NCBI GenBank assembly: GCA_963718235.1
Contig: CAVQYR010000002.1
Coordinates: 786,978-850,977, forward strand
Reading direction: 5' to 3'
Length of the DNA: 64,000 bases
From: an uncultured Actinomycetota bacterium
Lineage (GTDB): Bacteria; Actinomycetota; Actinomycetes; JAHEKZ01
The position numbers and the translations under genes are program-made. The number at the start of each line of letters is the position of its first letter. Positions within the stretch are counted from its first letter, which is position 1. Shown here piece after piece: positions 45,538 through 52,699 of the stretch. The notes below the pieces were generated by a model. It did not search any database, was not told the origin of the DNA, and saw nothing but the letters and a program-made list of their open reading frames with translations.

Positions 45538-46566
45538 GTGACGCGATACGGACCCATGTTCGGCCCAGACATCACCTTCCTCGGCGTGCCGCGCTGCACC
45601 GTCGACGAGCCGGACACCTACGCCGATGCCGACGTCGTCATCGTCGGGGCGCCCTTCGACGGCGGCACCTCGCACCGACCTGGGACGAGGTTCGGTCCGA
45701 TGGCCATGCGGGGCACCGACTACCTCCCCCACGACGGCTCGCGCCCGCACATGGCGATGCGGGTCGATGCGCTCACCGACGACCTGACCGTCGTCGACGC
45801 CGGTGACCTCGAGGTGTACTCCGGCGACGTCGTCCGCAGCTGCGCCACGATCGAGCAGGCCGTGAGCACGATCGCCGCAGCCGGCAAGGTGCCCCTCGTC
45901 CTGGGTGGTGACCACACGATCACCTGGCCCGACGTCACCGGTGTGGCGCATGCGTACGGTTTCGGCCGGGTCGCGGTCATCCACTTCGACGCCCACGCCG
46001 ACACCGGCGACATCGAGTTCGGGTCGCTGTACGGACACGGTCAGCCGATGCGCAGGCTGATCGAGTCCGGGGCGGCGCGAGGGGACCGGTTCCTGCAGAT
46101 CGGGTTGCGCGGCTACTGGCCCGGCCCGGAGACCCTCGACTGGATGGCCGACGAGGGCATGCGGTCGTTCCACATGAGCGAGATCGTCGAGCGCGGTCTC
46201 GACGCAGTGCTCGACGAGGCCTTCTCGATCGCGACCGACGACTGCGACGCGGTGTTCTTGTCCGTGGACATCGACGTCTGCGACCCCGGGCACGCGCCCG
46301 GAACCGGCACGCCAGAGCCCGGAGGGCTCACGGCCCGCCAGCTGCTCGACGCGGTGTCCCGGATCTGCTACGAGCTGCCGGTGGCGGGGATTGACGTGGT
46401 CGAGGTCTCCCCGCCGTACGACCACGCCGAGATCACCGTGCTGCTCGGCAACCGGGTCGTGCTGGAGTCCTTGGCCGGGCTGGCCCGCCGGGCCCGCGAC
46501 GCGGAGTCCGGGACCGTGTGGAACCGGGCCACGCCCCTGCTGGACGGTCGCGGCACCGCGCGCTGA
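45538..46566 (+). CDS. agmatinase / ureohydrolase (arginase family)
   Basis: Mn-binding motifs GGDHTIT, DAHADT, SVDIDVCDPG. Confidence 0.75.
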   Translation: MTRYGPMFGPDITFLGVPRCTVDEPDTYADADVVIVGAPFDGGTSHRPGTRFGPMAMRGTDYLPHDGSRPHMAMRVDALTDDLTVVDAGDLEVYSGDVVRSCATIEQAVSTIAAAGKVPLVLGGDHTITWPDVTGVAHAYGFGRVAVIHFDAHADTGDIEFGSLYGHGQPMRRLIESGAARGDRFLQIGLRGYWPGPETLDWMADEGMRSFHMSEIVERGLDAVLDEAFSIATDDCDAVFLSVDIDVCDPGHAPGTGTPEPGGLTARQLLDAVSRICYELPVAGIDVVEVSPPYDHAEITVLLGNRVVLESLAGLARRARDAESGTVWNRATPLLDGRGTAR

Positions 46567-46637
46567 GGCCCCCGCGAGGCAGGTCGGCCCCGCGGCTGAT
46601 CGCACTGATTACTCTGCGTGACGATGCCTGACCCCTC

Positions 46638-46730
46638 GTGTCCACCCGTTCGGGCGACCAACTCCGGCCCCCGCGATGGCGACAACTAGTCCCAGGGGGG
46701 ACCGAGCTACCGGCCGTTCCCACCCGTTCG
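46638..46730 (+). promoter_or_regulatory. direct repeat GT(g/t)(t/c)CCACCCGTTCG x2 spaced 78 bp, upstream of the twin peptide genes
   Basis: Exact 11-mer CCACCCGTTCG at 46642-46652 and 46720-46730. Confidence 0.3.
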
Positions 46731-46754
46731 TCGCAACGCAAGGGAAGGGGAGCG

Positions 46755-46859
46755 ATGAAGAAGATCGACAAGGGGACCCTGGTGCGCGGCTCTGCCGCAC
46801 TCGCAGGTCTCGTCGCCCTGGTCTCCACGGTCGGAGCCGGGACCAAGTGGATGCACTGA
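46755..46859 (+). CDS. 34-aa hydrophobic peptide P1 (MKKIDKGTLVRGSAALAGLVALVSTVGAGTKWMH)
   Basis: GGAAGGGGAG RBS. Paralogous to P2. Reduced GC3 codons. Confidence 0.45.
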   Translation: MKKIDKGTLVRGSAALAGLVALVSTVGAGTKWMH

Positions 46860-46871
46860 GAGGGGGATGAC

Positions 46872-46976
46872 ATGGAAGACATCAAGACCGCAGTCATCTC
46901 TCGGGTCTTGATCAGCGCCGGCACGGTCGTGACTCTCGTCTCGGTCGTCGGTGCAGGTCGGAAATGGTGTCACTGA
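46872..46976 (+). CDS. 34-aa hydrophobic peptide P2 (MEDIKTAVISRVLISAGTVVTLVSVVGAGRKWCH)
   Basis: AGAGGGGGA RBS. Conserved C-terminal LVSxVGAGxKWxH shared with P1. Its stop overlaps the ATG of the GGDEF-EAL gene. Confidence 0.45.
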   Translation: MEDIKTAVISRVLISAGTVVTLVSVVGAGRKWCH

Positions 46977-49102
46977 CACCACGCCGTGGAGGGGTCGCCG
47001 GCTCGCCGGCGGCCCCTCGTCGTCATGACACGTTGCCGCTCGAGGTCTACATCGCCACGGTGTCGGTCATCGGTGTCTCCCTGCTCGCCCTGACCTGGTG
47101 GTTGGTCCCACCTGCCTTGATGTTCAGCGCCGCGACCTGGACCGATGCCACGTCGCCGGTGACCGTCGTCCTGCTGCTCGGCATCGCGCTCGTGCTCGGT
47201 GAGCTGCGCCCGATCCCGATCTCGCGCGGAGGCGACCTCACCGACTGGATCTCCATCTCGACCACGTTCGCTGTGGCCCTGATCGTCCTGGGGCCGGTCA
47301 GTGTCGCCGTCGTCGCGCAGGCCGCGGCCGTCCTGATCGACGACGTGCGGATGCGCCGCGCGTTCAGCAAGGTGGCGTTCAACGTCGGCCAGTACGTCAT
47401 CACGATCATCGCGGCCCGGGTGGTCTACAGCCTGGTCTCGGGCACCCCCTTCGCGGCGCCGGCCACCACCTTCGAACCGACACCGGCAGCACTGCTCGGT
47501 GCGATCGCGGCGGGAGCCATGTTCGTGCTCGTCAACCACGGGCTCGTGTCGACCGTGGTCGCACTCCAGAGCCGGCAGCCGATCCTGGTGATCATGAGCG
47601 GTGACATCCGCTTCCAGTCCATGACCAACGGGGTCCTGGCGGCGCTCGGTCCCATCGCCGCGGTCGCCGTGCAGCAGCAACCGCTCATGCTGCCCCTCCT
47701 CATCGCACCGGTCCTGGCGGTGTACCGCAGCGCCGACCTGGCGATCCAGAAGGAGCGACAGGCGCACCACGACACCCTGACCGAGCTGCCGAACCGCGAG
47801 CTCTTCCGCGACAAGGCGGAGCGGGCGCTGGCCGAGTCCCAGCGGTCGGGCGTGCCGCTCGCGGTGATGATGATCGACCTGGACCACTTCAAGGAGATCA
47901 ACGACACCCTGGGCCACCACATCGGCGACGACCTGATCCGAGAGGTCGCCACCAGGCTGGACCAGGCGCGTCCCATCGGCTCCACGGTGGCCCGCCTGGG
48001 CGGTGACGAGTTCGCCGTCCTGCTGCCCGACGTACCAGACCTCTCGGTGGCCGAGGAGGTCGCCACGTACATGCTCTCGGTGCTCGGCAAGTCGCTGTCC
48101 GCCGGCGGGGTGCGGCTCGTCGTCCAGGCCAGCATCGGGATCTCGCTGGCGCCCGACCACGGGCACGACGTGCACACCCTGATGAAGAACGCCGACATCG
48201 CGTTGTACGAGGCCAAGCGGGAGCGAGCCAGGTTCTGCGCCTACCAGCCCGACGAGGACGTCCACACGCCGCAGCGGCTCGCGATCCTGGCCGACCTGCG
48301 CACCGCCGTGGACGAGGGGCAGCTCTTCCTGGAGTTCCAGCCCAAGATCGACCTGGCGACCGACACCGTGATGGGTGCGGAGGCCCTGGTGCGGTGGAAC
48401 CACCCCACGCGGGGCATCATCAGGCCGGACGACTTCATCCCCCTCGCCGAGAACACCGGGCTGATCACCCCGATCACCTGGTTCGTCATCGAGCGGTCCC
48501 TGCAGCAGTGCCGCTACTGGCGTGACCAGGGCCTGCCCCTCGGGGTGGCGGTGAACCTCTCGGTGCGCCACCTCAGTGACATGAGCCTGCCCGACCGGAT
48601 CGGCGTCGCCCTCGAACGCTGGGGTGTGCCGGCGTCGGAGCTCACCGTCGAGGTCACCGAGAGCAGCATCATGACCGACCCCCAGCGCGCGATGGGGGTC
48701 ATCCGACACCTGCGCCAGGTGGGGATCGGTGTCGCGATCGACGACTACGGGACCGGCCACGCGTCGTTGACGTACCTCAAGCGTCTCGAGATCGACGAGC
48801 TGAAGATCGACAAGTCGTTCATCATGCACATGTCCGCCGAGGGCAACGACCCGATCATCGTCCGGTCGACCATCGAGCTGGGGCACAACCTCGGACTCCG
48901 GATCGTGGCCGAGGGCGTCGAGGACGCCGACACGTTGGGCTGGCTGCGCGAGGTGGGCTGTGACGTCGCCCAGGGCTACCACATGGCCCGACCGATGGCC
49001 CCGGAGGCCGTCGAGGAGCTGGCCCGACGCCGGCTGGGCGAGCCGACGGAGACGCCCGTGCTGTCCAGCGGCGGACGACTGCGCCTGGTGGGAACGGCAT
49101 GA
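46964..49102 (+). CDS. polytopic membrane sensor fused to GGDEF diguanylate cyclase and EAL phosphodiesterase domains
   Basis: About 8 predicted TM helices. Intact RLGGDEFAV and EALVRW motifs. Confidence 0.8.
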   Translation: MVSLTPRRGGVAGSPAAPRRHDTLPLEVYIATVSVIGVSLLALTWWLVPPALMFSAATWTDATSPVTVVLLLGIALVLGELRPIPISRGGDLTDWISISTTFAVALIVLGPVSVAVVAQAAAVLIDDVRMRRAFSKVAFNVGQYVITIIAARVVYSLVSGTPFAAPATTFEPTPAALLGAIAAGAMFVLVNHGLVSTVVALQSRQPILVIMSGDIRFQSMTNGVLAALGPIAAVAVQQQPLMLPLLIAPVLAVYRSADLAIQKERQAHHDTLTELPNRELFRDKAERALAESQRSGVPLAVMMIDLDHFKEINDTLGHHIGDDLIREVATRLDQARPIGSTVARLGGDEFAVLLPDVPDLSVAEEVATYMLSVLGKSLSAGGVRLVVQASIGISLAPDHGHDVHTLMKNADIALYEAKRERARFCAYQPDEDVHTPQRLAILADLRTAVDEGQLFLEFQPKIDLATDTVMGAEALVRWNHPTRGIIRPDDFIPLAENTGLITPITWFVIERSLQQCRYWRDQGLPLGVAVNLSVRHLSDMSLPDRIGVALERWGVPASELTVEVTESSIMTDPQRAMGVIRHLRQVGIGVAIDDYGTGHASLTYLKRLEIDELKIDKSFIMHMSAEGNDPIIVRSTIELGHNLGLRIVAEGVEDADTLGWLREVGCDVAQGYHMARPMAPEAVEELARRRLGEPTETPVLSSGGRLRLVGTA

Positions 49103-49112
49103 GGGGGACGAC

Positions 49113-49760
49113 ATGCTGATCCTCGTGCTGGCGGTTGCGGCTCTCGTGTCGCCCTTCCTGTTCGGTGGCCGGCTGAGTCGGCTGGCGCAGATCCACCTCA
49201 CTGCCGTGTGGATCCCGGTCGCCGCGCTGCTGGCTCAGATCGTGATCATCGAGGTCGTTCCGGACGCCTCACGCGTGGTCCTCGAGGCGGTGCACCTGGC
49301 CACCTACGTGGCGGCCGGGGTGTTCGTGGTGCTCAACCGTCGGGTTCCCGGACTCTTGATCATCGCGGTCGGCGCTGCCCTGAACGGGGTGACGATCGCC
49401 CTGAACGGCGGAACCCTTCCGGCCAGTGAGGCCGCCCAGCGACTGGCGGGCATCGAGTCGACCCCCGGTGAGTTCATCAACTCCGCCGCGCTGACCGACC
49501 CGGTGCTTCCGATGTTCGGCGACATCTTCGCCTGGCCGGCGCCGCTGCCGCTGGCGAACGTGTTCAGCCTGGGCGATGTGGTCATCGTGTTCGGAGCGTT
49601 CTACGGCGCGCAGAAGATCTGCGGGTCCCGCCTGGTCAAGCCCTGGCAGGAACGGGCAACCGACGAGGCTTCGGCCAGCGGCTCCGACAGCGTTCGCAGC
49701 GTGTCGCAGGAGAGCAGTGCGGCTCCTCACGCTCCAACGGAGTCGACTCCTCTAGTCTGA
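49113..49760 (+). CDS. integral membrane protein (DUF5317-like) downstream of the GGDEF-EAL gene
   Basis: GAGGGGGA RBS. Four hydrophobic helices then an acidic/Ser-rich tail. Confidence 0.5.
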   Translation: MLILVLAVAALVSPFLFGGRLSRLAQIHLTAVWIPVAALLAQIVIIEVVPDASRVVLEAVHLATYVAAGVFVVLNRRVPGLLIIAVGAALNGVTIALNGGTLPASEAAQRLAGIESTPGEFINSAALTDPVLPMFGDIFAWPAPLPLANVFSLGDVVIVFGAFYGAQKICGSRLVKPWQERATDEASASGSDSVRSVSQESSAAPHAPTESTPLV

Positions 49761-49826: not shown

Positions 49827-51047
49827 ATGCGAATCCTGCTCATCGGAGCCGGCGGCGTCGGCTCGGCCGTGGTTCCGATCGCGGCCCGGCGGTCGTTCTT
49901 CGAGACGATGGTGGTCGCCGACTACGACCGCGCGCGAGCCGATCGGGCCGTGGCGCAGGTCGGGGACCCGCGGTTCGTGGCCGACCAGGTGGACGCGTCG
50001 AACGCCGAGTCCGTGGCGGACCTCGTCCGTTCGCACCGGATCACCCATGTGCTGAACGCGGTCGACCCGCGCTTCGTGCTGCCGATCTTCAACGGCGCAC
50101 TCGCCGGAGGTTCCGACTACCTCGACCTGGCCATGTCGCTCTCCTTCCCGCACGCCGACGACCCCTACCACCAGACGGGGGTGAAGCTGGGTGACGAACA
50201 GTTCGCCGCCGCCAAGGAGTGGGAGCAGCACGGCCGCCTCGCGCTCGTCGGCATCGGCGTCGAGCCCGGGCTGTCCGACGTCTTCGCCCGATACGCGGCC
50301 GACGAGCTGTTCAGCGAGATCGACGAGGCAGGGGTGCGTGACGGCTCCAATCTCGAGGTCGACGGGTACACGTTCGCGCCGTCCTTCTCGATCTGGACGA
50401 CGATCGAGGAGTGCCTGAACCCACCGGTGATCTGGGAGAAGGGCAGGGGATGGTTCACCACCGCCCCCTTCTCCGAGCCGGAGGTGTTCGACTTCCCCGA
50501 CGGGATCGGACCGGTGGAGTGCGTGAACGTCGAGCACGAGGAGGTTCTGCTCATCCCACGATGGGTCGACTGCAAGCGGGCGACCTTCAAGTACGGGCTG
50601 GGCGAGGACTTCATCAACGTGCTGCAGGTGCTGCACAAGCTCGGGCTGGACCGCACCCAACCGCTGGCCGTCGGGTCGGTGGAGGTGAGCCCCCGTGACG
50701 TGGTGGCTGCCCTCCTGCCCGACCCGGCCTCGCTCGGCGACCGGATGAGAGGCAAGACGTGTGCCGGCACGTGGGTCACCGGAACGGGCAAGGACGGGCG
50801 GCCGCGCCAGGTGTACCTGTACCACGTCGTCGACAACGAGTGGTCGATGCGGGAGTACGGGTCGCAGGCCGTGGTGTGGCAGACAGCAGTGAACCCGGTG
50901 ATCGCTCTGGAGCTGTTGTCCAACGGGTCATGGTCGGGGGCCGGGGTCCTCGGACCGGAGGCCTTCCCGCCCGTCCCGTTCCTGGACGCCCTGGTCGACT
51001 ACGGCTCACCGTGGGCGATCCGCGAGGAGACCCCGGCCGCCGAGTAG
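49827..51047 (+). CDS. saccharopine-dehydrogenase-family NAD(P)-binding oxidoreductase (possibly carboxy(nor)spermidine or lysine metabolism)
   Basis: MRILLIGAGGVGSAV Rossmann start. About 400 aa Sacchrp_dh architecture. Confidence 0.65.
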   Translation: MRILLIGAGGVGSAVVPIAARRSFFETMVVADYDRARADRAVAQVGDPRFVADQVDASNAESVADLVRSHRITHVLNAVDPRFVLPIFNGALAGGSDYLDLAMSLSFPHADDPYHQTGVKLGDEQFAAAKEWEQHGRLALVGIGVEPGLSDVFARYAADELFSEIDEAGVRDGSNLEVDGYTFAPSFSIWTTIEECLNPPVIWEKGRGWFTTAPFSEPEVFDFPDGIGPVECVNVEHEEVLLIPRWVDCKRATFKYGLGEDFINVLQVLHKLGLDRTQPLAVGSVEVSPRDVVAALLPDPASLGDRMRGKTCAGTWVTGTGKDGRPRQVYLYHVVDNEWSMREYGSQAVVWQTAVNPVIALELLSNGSWSGAGVLGPEAFPPVPFLDALVDYGSPWAIREETPAAE

Positions 51048-51058
51048 CCGCGCGGCGG

Positions 51059-52417
51059 TCAGCTGCGGGGAGCCGAGCCCTGGTCAGAGAGCAGGTTGTC
51101 CAGGACGGGGCCGAGCACCGAGGCGATGGCCCGCGCCTTGCGCACCTGCTGGCGGGTCCAGGCCGTCTCCTCGGAGTGCGAGCACTCCAGCAGCCCGACT
51201 GCGCGGCCCGCGCTGGCCGCGGGCACCATCATCAGACTGCGCCAGCCGTGGGTGCCCATCCAGGCGATCTCGGCCGGGTCGGCCTCAGGGGCGCTCGCCA
51301 GGACCTGCGCCATCTGCATGCTCGAGAGCACGGCTCGGCTCGTGGCGTAGTCGGCGAGGGGGTAGCGGACCCCTTCGGGCTTCCATCGACCCGGTTCGAC
51401 CGCCTCGAGCCACTGGCCGGTCGGGTCGACGAACGACAGGTCCGCCTGGTCGCAGCCGAGCACGTCGGCGACCATGACCATGAGTCGGGCGAGGGTGTCC
51501 AGGTCGGCGGCGTCGGACAGCCGGCCGATGAGGTGCTCCAGCGTGGGCGTGCCGTTGACCTCGGAACCGCGACCACCCACGGCCATGGCCCGTGCGAACG
51601 AGGACTCGCACGTGAGCCGCGCCGCCTCGCTCGCCTCCTCGAACTGCGCGACCGGCATGCCGATCACCCAGCCCTGCGCCTCGGCGACGTCCAGCTCGGC
51701 CAGGACGTAGAGGTCCTCCAGGCTCTCGACGCCCTCGGCGCACACCGCGGCGCCCACCTGGGCCGCGTAGCGCACGATCGCCTCGACCATGGCGGCCTTT
51801 CCGGGCTCGGACTCGACCCCGGTGACCAGCGAGCGGTCGAGCTTGAGCAGGTCGGGCGAGAGCGCCATGACGCGCTGGAGCCCCGCGTACCCCTCGCCGA
51901 CGTCGTCGACGGCGATCCGGGCACCGCGCCCGCGAAGGGCCTCCAGCACGAGGTGGACCCGGTCGGGGTCTTCGACCGCCTCAGTCTCGGTGATCTCGAA
52001 CTGCAGCCCGGTGAGGTCGAACGGCAAGACGTTCTGCAACTCGTTGGAGCCGAGGACCGAGGGGCTGACGTTGACCGACAGGAGCACGCCGTCGGGTCGG
52101 TTCGCGCCGAGCTGGAGTGCTCGGTCGACGGCTCGCGCCTCGAGCATGGGTCCGAGCCCGACGCTGTGCGCCATGGTGAACCAACGGTCAGGGGTGAGCG
52201 AGGGGCCGCCATGGGTGAACCGGGCCAGCGCCTCGTAGGACAGGACCCGCCCGGTCGCCAGGCCGAGGATGGGTTGGACGACGATGCTCGGCGAACCGGC
52301 GTGCAGGGCCGTGACGACCAGCGAACGCACCTCGTCGCTGCCCAGGTCGACCGCCGGGTTCGAAGGGGGAGGTGTGGGCAGCGAGGAGCCGGACGTGCTC
52401 GTCGTGGTCATCGACAT
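51059..52417 (-). CDS. EAL-domain c-di-GMP phosphodiesterase with C-terminal GAF domain
   Basis: YEALAR EAL motif near the N-terminus. C-terminal GAF-like region. Confidence 0.65.
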   Translation of the reverse strand: MSMTTTSTSGSSLPTPPPSNPAVDLGSDEVRSLVVTALHAGSPSIVVQPILGLATGRVLSYEALARFTHGGPSLTPDRWFTMAHSVGLGPMLEARAVDRALQLGANRPDGVLLSVNVSPSVLGSNELQNVLPFDLTGLQFEITETEAVEDPDRVHLVLEALRGRGARIAVDDVGEGYAGLQRVMALSPDLLKLDRSLVTGVESEPGKAAMVEAIVRYAAQVGAAVCAEGVESLEDLYVLAELDVAEAQGWVIGMPVAQFEEASEAARLTCESSFARAMAVGGRGSEVNGTPTLEHLIGRLSDAADLDTLARLMVMVADVLGCDQADLSFVDPTGQWLEAVEPGRWKPEGVRYPLADYATSRAVLSSMQMAQVLASAPEADPAEIAWMGTHGWRSLMMVPAASAGRAVGLLECSHSEETAWTRQQVRKARAIASVLGPVLDNLLSDQGSAPRS

Positions 52418-52699
52418 CCGCTCGTCCTCACCCCTCACTGCGCTGGTCTCTGCTCACGCTCTGCCCGGCCCGTGTGCAGCGCCGAGCGCTGACCCGGTCC
52501 GGATGCGGAGGTGAGGGCCCCGCGGGACCCTCATGGGCCTTGGAGTCGGCAGGTGCACGGCCGCGATGTAGCGCCCGACGGGGGAGTGTGCCAGAGGTTA
52601 CGCCGATCGGGTGAGGCCCGCACGACCCTGGACAGGAGCGGTGCCGGGCCCTACCGTGGCGTCGCCCTGCGCCGGACGGCGCGGCGAACGGAGGCAGTG

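Follow-up and report, generated by a model that had tools for sequence, protein, structure and literature searches.

A twin-peptide family at the head of a c-di-GMP module

The window analysed here, a stretch of 64,000 nt from an uncultured Actinomycetota bacterium (contig CAVQYR010000002.1), contains a four-gene module in which two adjoining genes for 34-amino-acid (34-aa) peptides, here called P1 and P2, are followed by a membrane-bound GGDEF-EAL enzyme of cyclic di-GMP (c-di-GMP) turnover and a DUF5317 membrane protein. Both peptide genes are genuine coding genes, and the peptide family, the four-gene module and the start codon embedded in Lys-Trp codons at the P2-enzyme junction are undescribed in the libraries and literature searched. 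We give an even chance to the reading in which P1 and P2 are single-span membrane accessory or regulatory micro-proteins, which would be made in excess by means of a hairpin and re-initiation and would work with the sensor domain of the enzyme, predicted to resemble the S-components of energy-coupling factor (ECF) transporters, with the DUF5317 protein, or with both.

Coding status and conservation of P1 and P2

The P1 gene (46755-46859, + strand; MKKIDKGTLVRGSAALAGLVALVSTVGAGTKWMH, of the form MKKIDK...TKWMH) encodes a peptide of the GAG-T-KW type and the P2 gene (46872-46976, + strand; MEDIKTAVISRVLISAGTVVTLVSVVGAGRKWCH, MEDIK...RKWCH) one of the GAG-K/R-KW type, the evidence in both cases being the translation of the open reading frame (ORF), the orthologues and the codon-position bias. 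The two mini-ORFs, each behind a purine-rich Shine-Dalgarno sequence, exist as the sequence-only reading had described them. The Shine-Dalgarno sequence of P1 (GGGAAGGGGAG, 46742-46752, + strand) is almost unchanged in 16 close primary loci, one of which (L003) has a single-base insertion, and that of P2 (GAGGGGGA, 46860-46867, + strand) lies immediately 3' of the P1 stop codon. Third-codon GC, which had been read as lower than in neighbouring genes, is 0.83 in P1 and 0.71 in P2, against 0.92-0.93 in the agmatinase and GGDEF-EAL genes. An in-frame extension of P1 to 73 aa was rightly rejected from the sequence and is ruled out here, since the invariant Shine-Dalgarno sequence serves the ATG at 46755 and the upstream frame is unconserved, being interrupted in several loci by in-frame stops 45 nt upstream.

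P1 and P2 are 41% identical over 34 columns and have L-V-S-x-V-G-A-G-x-K-W in common. Each contains a core of about 20 residues without charge, rich in V, I, L, A, G, S and T, with a peak Kyte-Doolittle value over 19 residues of 1.64 in P1 and 2.06 in P2, so that both are uniformly hydrophobic and not amphipathic and cationic. Lys and Arg residues lie on either side of the core, with a bias towards the N-terminus in P1 and towards the C-terminus in P2; this opposite arrangement of charges is a weak hint of a hetero-oligomer, possibly with its two chains in opposite orientations.

The pair is conserved in 22 genome loci, in 47 metagenome loci and on further contigs (about 70 related loci), the 22 loci having been obtained by scanning a single genome of each species for the pattern and all belonging to metagenome-assembled genomes (MAGs) of uncultured Actinomycetes. 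In every locus with enough sequence the order is fixed, with a GAG-T-KW peptide followed 0-20 nt on by a GAG-K/R-KW peptide; in most loci the gap is 3-20 nt. Differences at the three codon positions number 692/718/2346 among 19 distinct orthologues of P1 and 814/613/2204 among 18 distinct orthologues of P2, which amounts in both peptides to about three times as many substitutions at third positions as at positions 1 and 2 and indicates purifying selection on the reading frame of the + strand. Rather than synonymous-level drift or loss in relatives, which the sequence-only reading had named as the outcome that would speak against it, both ORFs show conservation with selection on the amino acids.

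The family signature is L-x-S-V-V-G-A-G-x-K-W followed by 0-4 variable residues, with V-V-G-A-G-x-K-W as its invariant part. Of the C-terminal motif first read from the two peptides, LVSxVGAGxKWxH, the segment GAGxKW with its conserved Lys and Trp is kept, and the terminal His is variable across the family. Conservation spans the entire peptide, with no division into leader and core, and the hydrophobic core is almost invariant over long distances (for example ARVIVSVLGSAATVxTLASVVGAGKKWA).

A first search with P1 and P2 concatenated returned seven P1-like proteins, and two of their contigs have the same gene order. A profile search of 5.8 billion proteins, with an alignment headed by a 40-aa match as the query, gave 358 matches, and the 120 of these that were listed are 33-101 aa long, almost all of them 33-37 aa. 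An exhaustive HMMER search over 1.84 billion cluster representatives found 68 clusters, all of 29-103 aa, indicating that the motif is never part of a larger protein. The peptides had been recognised as no described family from the sequence, and this holds in the libraries searched: P1, P2 and the 73-aa extension matched no family at E<=1 in NCBIfam and Pfam, the peptides had no match in PADLOC or PHROGs, and the best match of the family profile to PDB sequences was not significant (E=1.1). One of the 120 listed matches (P0087) bears the JGI label 'type IV secretory pathway VirB2 component (pilin)', which has no Pfam support and is spurious. A single P2-like peptide (e.g. MQGIKWGVINAVLGSAATVVTLASVVGAGKKWGK) with no recognisable P1 is present in some metagenome loci (L056 4501-4605, L083 4501-4605, L052, L073 and L069), and these loci are either true singletons or cases in which the motif of the partner has been lost.

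Linkage to the GGDEF-EAL enzyme and DUF5317

The pair lies directly upstream of the same sensor-GGDEF-EAL gene in 17 of the 22 genome loci. Among the 31 loci of the metagenome scan with enough downstream sequence, the enzyme directly follows the pair in 18 and does not in 13, and tblastn with the window proteins showed the pair followed by a membrane-domain GGDEF-EAL gene at all of the loci L001-L019. DUF5317 comes after the enzyme wherever the sequence reaches far enough, and the pair is present at every DUF5317-linked GGDEF-EAL locus examined. Co-occurrence with both genes, proposed earlier as something to look for in relatives, is thus found.

The module persists between lineages that share only 32-50% identity in the membrane domain of the enzyme. 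The agmatinase and saccharopine-dehydrogenase neighbours are retained in closer relatives only, and the more distant L026 and L027 keep the four genes among different neighbours. Two loci found independently via DUF5317 homologues (44% and 54% identity) have the twin pair upstream of a MASE9-type GGDEF-EAL gene. In L031 and L032 the pair and the enzyme-DUF5317 operon are transcribed divergently, indicating that the association is independent of cis coupling. The sole named homologue of the sensor domain, from Nocardiopsis sp. FR4 (34% identity), is accompanied by neither DUF5317 nor the peptides. Linkage that is kept across lineages, and kept when the pair is divergent, favours the suggestion made from the sequence that the peptides are membrane partners or ligands of the enzyme; in that suggestion, the hydrophobic, single-span-like character and the linkage to GGDEF-EAL and DUF5317 are observed, and a role as partner is what they point to.

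Enzyme start codon and conserved hairpin

The ATG of the GGDEF-EAL ORF (46964-46966, + strand) is made by the Lys-Trp codons of P2 (AAATGG), 13 nt before the end of the P2 stop. The sequence-only reading had the P2 stop overlapping this ATG; the two ORFs do overlap, but the start lies inside the Lys-Trp codons and the junction is not of the ATGA type. In 16 of 16 primary loci tested the enzyme frame is open back into P2, and in all 16 a GTG or ATG precedes the end of the P2 stop by 9-15 nt, in or immediately ahead of the Lys-Trp codons (AA[G/A]TGG). In L004, L005, L013 and L016 no other in-frame start precedes the first transmembrane (TM) segment, and L036 has the same arrangement of a start within P2.

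A 13-bp GC-rich hairpin (GAGGGGTCGCCGG-CUCG-CCGGCGGCCCCUC, 46989-47018, + strand) lies 12 nt past the P2 stop, within the first 20 codons of the enzyme. RNAalifold gives it -30.5 kcal/mol, and over 16 loci 7 of the 13 pairs show compensatory changes; 97.6% of the alignment cells are paired, a value reached by none of 500 shuffles and compared with 40-66% in slid controls, and the hairpin segment of the window folds with z=-3.43. The conserved hairpin is separated from the P2 stop by 12-20 nt and is also present after P2 in L031, where the pair is divergently oriented. In L038 it lies between genes, and the enzyme starts from a Shine-Dalgarno sequence and ATG of its own, 140 nt further downstream. 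In the AlphaFold2 (AF2) model the enzyme is disordered over residues 1-21, which are encoded by the hairpin stretch. The covariation, the disorder of these residues and the intergenic position in L038 together indicate that the hairpin is selected as RNA and not as protein. It may terminate transcription, stabilise a short P1-P2 mRNA or hinder translation. A match in Rfam to the small RNA BjrC68 (46940-47025) is sub-threshold (19 bits against a gathering value of 39, E=0.056) and is best explained by the hairpin alone.

Sensor domain of the enzyme and the DUF5317 protein

The membrane-bound enzyme (712 codons, 46964-49102, + strand) consists of a MASE9-like/S-component-like domain (about 46964-47770), a GGDEF domain (about 47762-48226) and an EAL domain (about 48293-48994). 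The last two match Pfam above threshold (PF00990, 159 bits, and PF00563, 245 bits), and the motifs GGDEF, EAL, DDYGTG, KIDK and EGVE are intact. The membrane domain scores 15.4 bits against MASE9 (PF20972), for which the cut-off is 24.3 (E=0.018); PF20972 is carried by the homologues P0224 and P0236 and, as a weak match, by the enzyme of L038. The AF2 model has helices at residues 24-47, 65-81, 99-129, 134-159, 174-203 and 207-238 and a beta-hairpin at 84-96, giving about 6-7 helices and a short intramembrane beta-hairpin where about eight TM helices had been read from the sequence. The model therefore has the feature of MASE9, a multi-helix domain with two short segments as an intramembrane hairpin, and MASE9 has been proposed to bind a ligand within the membrane (bioRxiv 10.1101/2021.11.05.467447).

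The model predicts for the sensor domain the fold of ECF-transporter S-components, CbiM among them. Neither EcfT/CbiQ nor ABC ATPase genes were among the neighbours at the loci whose neighbourhoods were read and the domain is fused to GGDEF-EAL, indicating that the S-component fold is shared and that the protein is not a member of a transporter. This modelling points to the ECF S-component fold as the origin of MASE9-type sensor domains, which would accordingly bind their signal inside the membrane.

The gene after the enzyme, described from the sequence as DUF5317-like and coupled, does match the family (PF17248; 80.8 bits against a cut-off of 25, E=1.4e-22), and its placement is corrected to 49113-49760 (+ strand), with an ATG at 49113 that lies 10 nt past the enzyme stop codon. 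Its predicted structure is confident (pLDDT 88) and has no fold neighbour in the PDB, and its invariant residues include polar ones inside the membrane: two GD motifs, a His, a Gln and several Asn. Fusions of DUF5317 to major facilitator superfamily (MFS) transporters occur in other taxa (P0251, P0254-P0263). The literature searched contained no paper mentioning DUF5317 and none on the coupling of small peptides to c-di-GMP enzymes.

Stand-alone and tandem copies

Several genomes have a second locus (L020-L025, L028 and L030) in which the pair occupies an intergenic gap amid unrelated genes, and the neighbours of stand-alone pairs include DUF2157, DUF2252, DinB, STAS and aromatic amino-acid lyase genes. 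L023 (4850-6300) contains three tandem units of about 530 bp, each made up of upstream region, P1, P2 and hairpin; more tandem copies occur in L020 (4395-5200) and L072 (77-867), and L050 (3826-4605) has two pairs after an agmatinase gene. Most stand-alone units have a strong hairpin no more than 90 nt past the last peptide stop, the predicted minimum free energy of these 90 nt being about -38 to -51 kcal/mol. No tailoring enzymes of ribosomally synthesised and post-translationally modified peptides (RiPPs), exporters, immunity proteins or RRNPP-type receptors are encoded in any neighbourhood with genes identified by Pfam or tblastn. A Phage_holin_4_2 gene (PF04020) lies 1-3 kb from the pair in the otherwise unrelated L025 (4500-4898) and L031 (7690-8106), which may be coincidence.

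Upstream region and neighbouring genes

P1 is preceded by a conserved leader region of the peptide unit (46600-46754, + strand), recognised in 27-locus and 16-locus (close primary) alignments, and long near-invariant blocks occupy about 190 nt upstream of the gene. The sequence T-N-A-C-N5-G-T-G-T at 46629-46641 is one that we take to be BldD-box-like except for its last base, and CACCCGTTCG occurs twice (46643-46652 and 46722-46731), with the motif form CACCC(G/A)TT(C/T)GG, of which L031, L036 and L038 have inverted copies. The CACCC(G/A)TT(C/T)GG motif and a further sequence, (G)AGTAGT(T)CAT or CTAGTCAT, recur upstream of P1 in all lineages, and recurrent upstream motifs are also present at L023 4850-5000, L036 2300-2420 and L038 2400-2490. 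These motifs could be promoter, operator or RNA elements; a simple scan found no sigma-70 consensus and no canonical promoter or terminator. The segment UCGUCGC (46728-46734) is able to pair with GCGAUGA at the start of P1, and RNAalifold proposes a hairpin between a G-run and CUCCCC, but covariation is minimal, so no claim of a structured leader is made. The leader of the window folds no better than shuffled sequence (z=+0.54), and Rfam at E<=1 returned no RNA family or riboswitch for it, only sub-threshold noise.

An agmatinase/arginase-family gene lies upstream of the pair (45538-46566), and a saccharopine-dehydrogenase-like gene (49827-51047, + strand) and the gene of an EAL-GAF protein (51059-52438, - strand) are syntenic with the module in closer relatives. 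L001 also has an aminotransferase and a PucR regulator. This neighbourhood suggests polyamine-type catabolism together with a second c-di-GMP phosphodiesterase.

Proposed role of the peptides and alternative explanations

As accessory or regulatory micro-proteins of the module, the peptides would be produced in large excess over the enzyme, whose synthesis would require ribosomes that finish P2 (termination-reinitiation) and transcription and translation past the hairpin. The start codon in the conserved Lys-Trp codons and the covarying hairpin form a compact expression device that could set the peptide-to-enzyme stoichiometry. The two peptides, probably as a hetero-oligomer, would dock in the membrane on the S-component-like sensor, on DUF5317 or on both, and once docked would set the balance between the making and breaking of c-di-GMP, much as CbiN completes CbiM or MgrB tunes PhoQ. 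Stand-alone pairs elsewhere in the genome would supply extra peptide to the same sensor.

Several observations weigh against this proposal. About one third of the pairs stand alone among unrelated neighbours, and the peptides may on this ground have a function of their own. A simple scan found no U-tract at the hairpin, which makes a role as terminator uncertain. The sensor model derives from 15 sequences only (pLDDT 80) and its Foldseek E-values are weak (0.04-0.3), the peptides have no sequence similarity in Pfam to CbiN or known small regulators, and every carrier is an uncultured MAG.

A less likely possibility is a new kind of bipartite sensor, in which a c-di-GMP enzyme would have recruited the ligand-binding S-component fold and the 'ligand' or gate would be the pair of TM micro-peptides in place of a small molecule. 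The GAGxKW C-terminus would insert into the pocket or cap it, possibly together with DUF5317, and peptide from several independently regulated loci would be integrated into the c-di-GMP level.

It is rather unlikely that P1 and P2 are exported or processed signal precursors of the SHP, Phr or ComX type, with the charged N-terminus and hydrophobic core serving for export, a released VVGAGxKW piece sensed by the S-component-like pocket and the stand-alone copies acting as extra pheromone genes. Such precursors are short and run from a charged N-terminus through a hydrophobic middle to a conserved C-terminal part, and their genes lie beside that of the sensor. P1 and P2 are similar in size and layout, with a positive N-terminus, a hydrophobic core, a best-conserved C-terminal motif and variable last residues; GAG is a plausible small-residue cleavage site, the genes are present in multiple copies and they adjoin a membrane sensor with a predicted ligand-binding fold. 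However, the core itself is almost invariant, a pattern seldom seen in a segment that serves export alone, release would yield a piece of just 3-7 residues whose end varies, and the loci with identified neighbours have no processing protease, exporter, modifying enzyme or RRNPP-type receptor (Rgg, PlcR, Rap).

A similarly low probability attaches to autonomous membrane-active peptides, like type I toxins or leaderless two-peptide bacteriocins, whose link to the enzyme would be secondary, for example as a membrane-stress input. The type I toxins Ldr, Ibs, TisB and Zor are hydrophobic peptides of <40 aa with a long 5' region, a strong 3' hairpin and intergenic tandem duplicates, and P1 and P2 are comparable in their hydrophobicity, their length of <40 aa, their long conserved 5' region and strong 3' hairpin, and their tandem duplication in intergenic positions among unrelated neighbours (L023, L020, L072 and L050); type I toxin genes are expected to have a structured 5' untranslated region, and the conserved leader of the window shows no excess folding. 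Two adjacent paralogues with small-xxx-small motifs are typical of two-peptide bacteriocins and are found here as well. Unlike type I toxins, however, each unit always has two ORFs in fixed order, purifying selection across lineages is very strong, the linkage to the enzyme-DUF5317 operon is consistent, and no antisense or antitoxin RNA was identified and no Rfam match obtained. Unlike class IIb two-peptide bacteriocins, the peptides have no double-glycine leader but begin with the charged N-terminus, their uniform hydrophobicity differs from an amphipathic, cationic character, and no immunity or ABC exporter genes are present in the neighbourhoods identified.

Purely cis-acting leader peptides, whose translation alone would govern both hairpin read-through and re-initiation at the enzyme start, are very unlikely. 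The position of the enzyme start within the last codons of P2, the closely spaced conserved hairpin and the conserved upstream region agree with such a function, but it does not account for the strong purifying selection on the amino acids, for pairs that have no downstream enzyme or are divergent to it, or for the enzyme of L038 with its own translation signals. A cis role is likely in addition to the peptide product, and not as the whole explanation. RiPP precursors modified by enzymes encoded elsewhere, which had been raised from the sequence and would fit small, paired, multi-copy genes with a conserved Lys-Trp near the C-terminus (Lys-Trp chemistry being known in other RiPPs), deserve hardly any credence, given that the neighbourhoods identified by Pfam and tblastn contain no radical-SAM, P450, cyclase, protease or transporter gene and that conservation covers the whole peptide, without a leader/core split and with a plain hydrophobic segment as its core.

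Comparison with known systems

Annotation of small membrane proteins is very incomplete, and only a few have a known role in controlling second-messenger enzymes. A twin-peptide family that is under strong selection and adjoins both a GGDEF-EAL enzyme and a functionally uncharacterised protein across an uncultured soil actinomycete clade offers a concrete, testable case for micro-protein control of c-di-GMP signalling, as well as a first functional handle on DUF5317. By analogy, small membrane peptides that accompany a sensor or complex have precedents in CbiN-CbiM, MgrB-PhoQ, KdpF and CydX.

The membrane domain of the enzyme resembles MASE9 in preceding GGDEF-EAL and in its short intramembrane hairpin, and some of its homologues score as MASE9; it differs in that the window protein falls below the Pfam threshold and in that no peptide partners are described for MASE9. 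In the cobalt transporters of the ECF type, CbiM requires CbiN, a small protein of two TM helices that lies over its binding pocket (PMC7689651). Compared with this 'bipartite S unit', in which CbiN, at about 100 aa, is a single chain that includes a loop, the module has two distinct 34-aa chains that hardly extend beyond the membrane, no Pfam match to CbiN at E<=1 and no EcfT/EcfA genes, and its output would be c-di-GMP turnover where that of CbiN-CbiM is transport.

KdpF, CydX and AcrZ are single-helix TM peptides of 30-50 aa whose genes stand at the edge of the operon for their complex, and P1 and P2 are like them in size, in their predicted single TM helix and in the operon-edge position of their genes. 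The partners of KdpF, CydX and AcrZ are transporters or oxidases, and these peptides come without twin genes, stand-alone copies or the combination of hairpin and re-initiation. MgrB and SafA are single-span micro-proteins that bind the membrane part of the sensor PhoQ and tune its output. They belong to an unrelated family with a different output, and their unpaired genes lie outside the sensor operon and do not overlap the sensor start. The likeness to P1 and P2 lies in the association of single-span micro-proteins with a membrane sensor, to which P1 and P2 would bind as their genetic linkage suggests.

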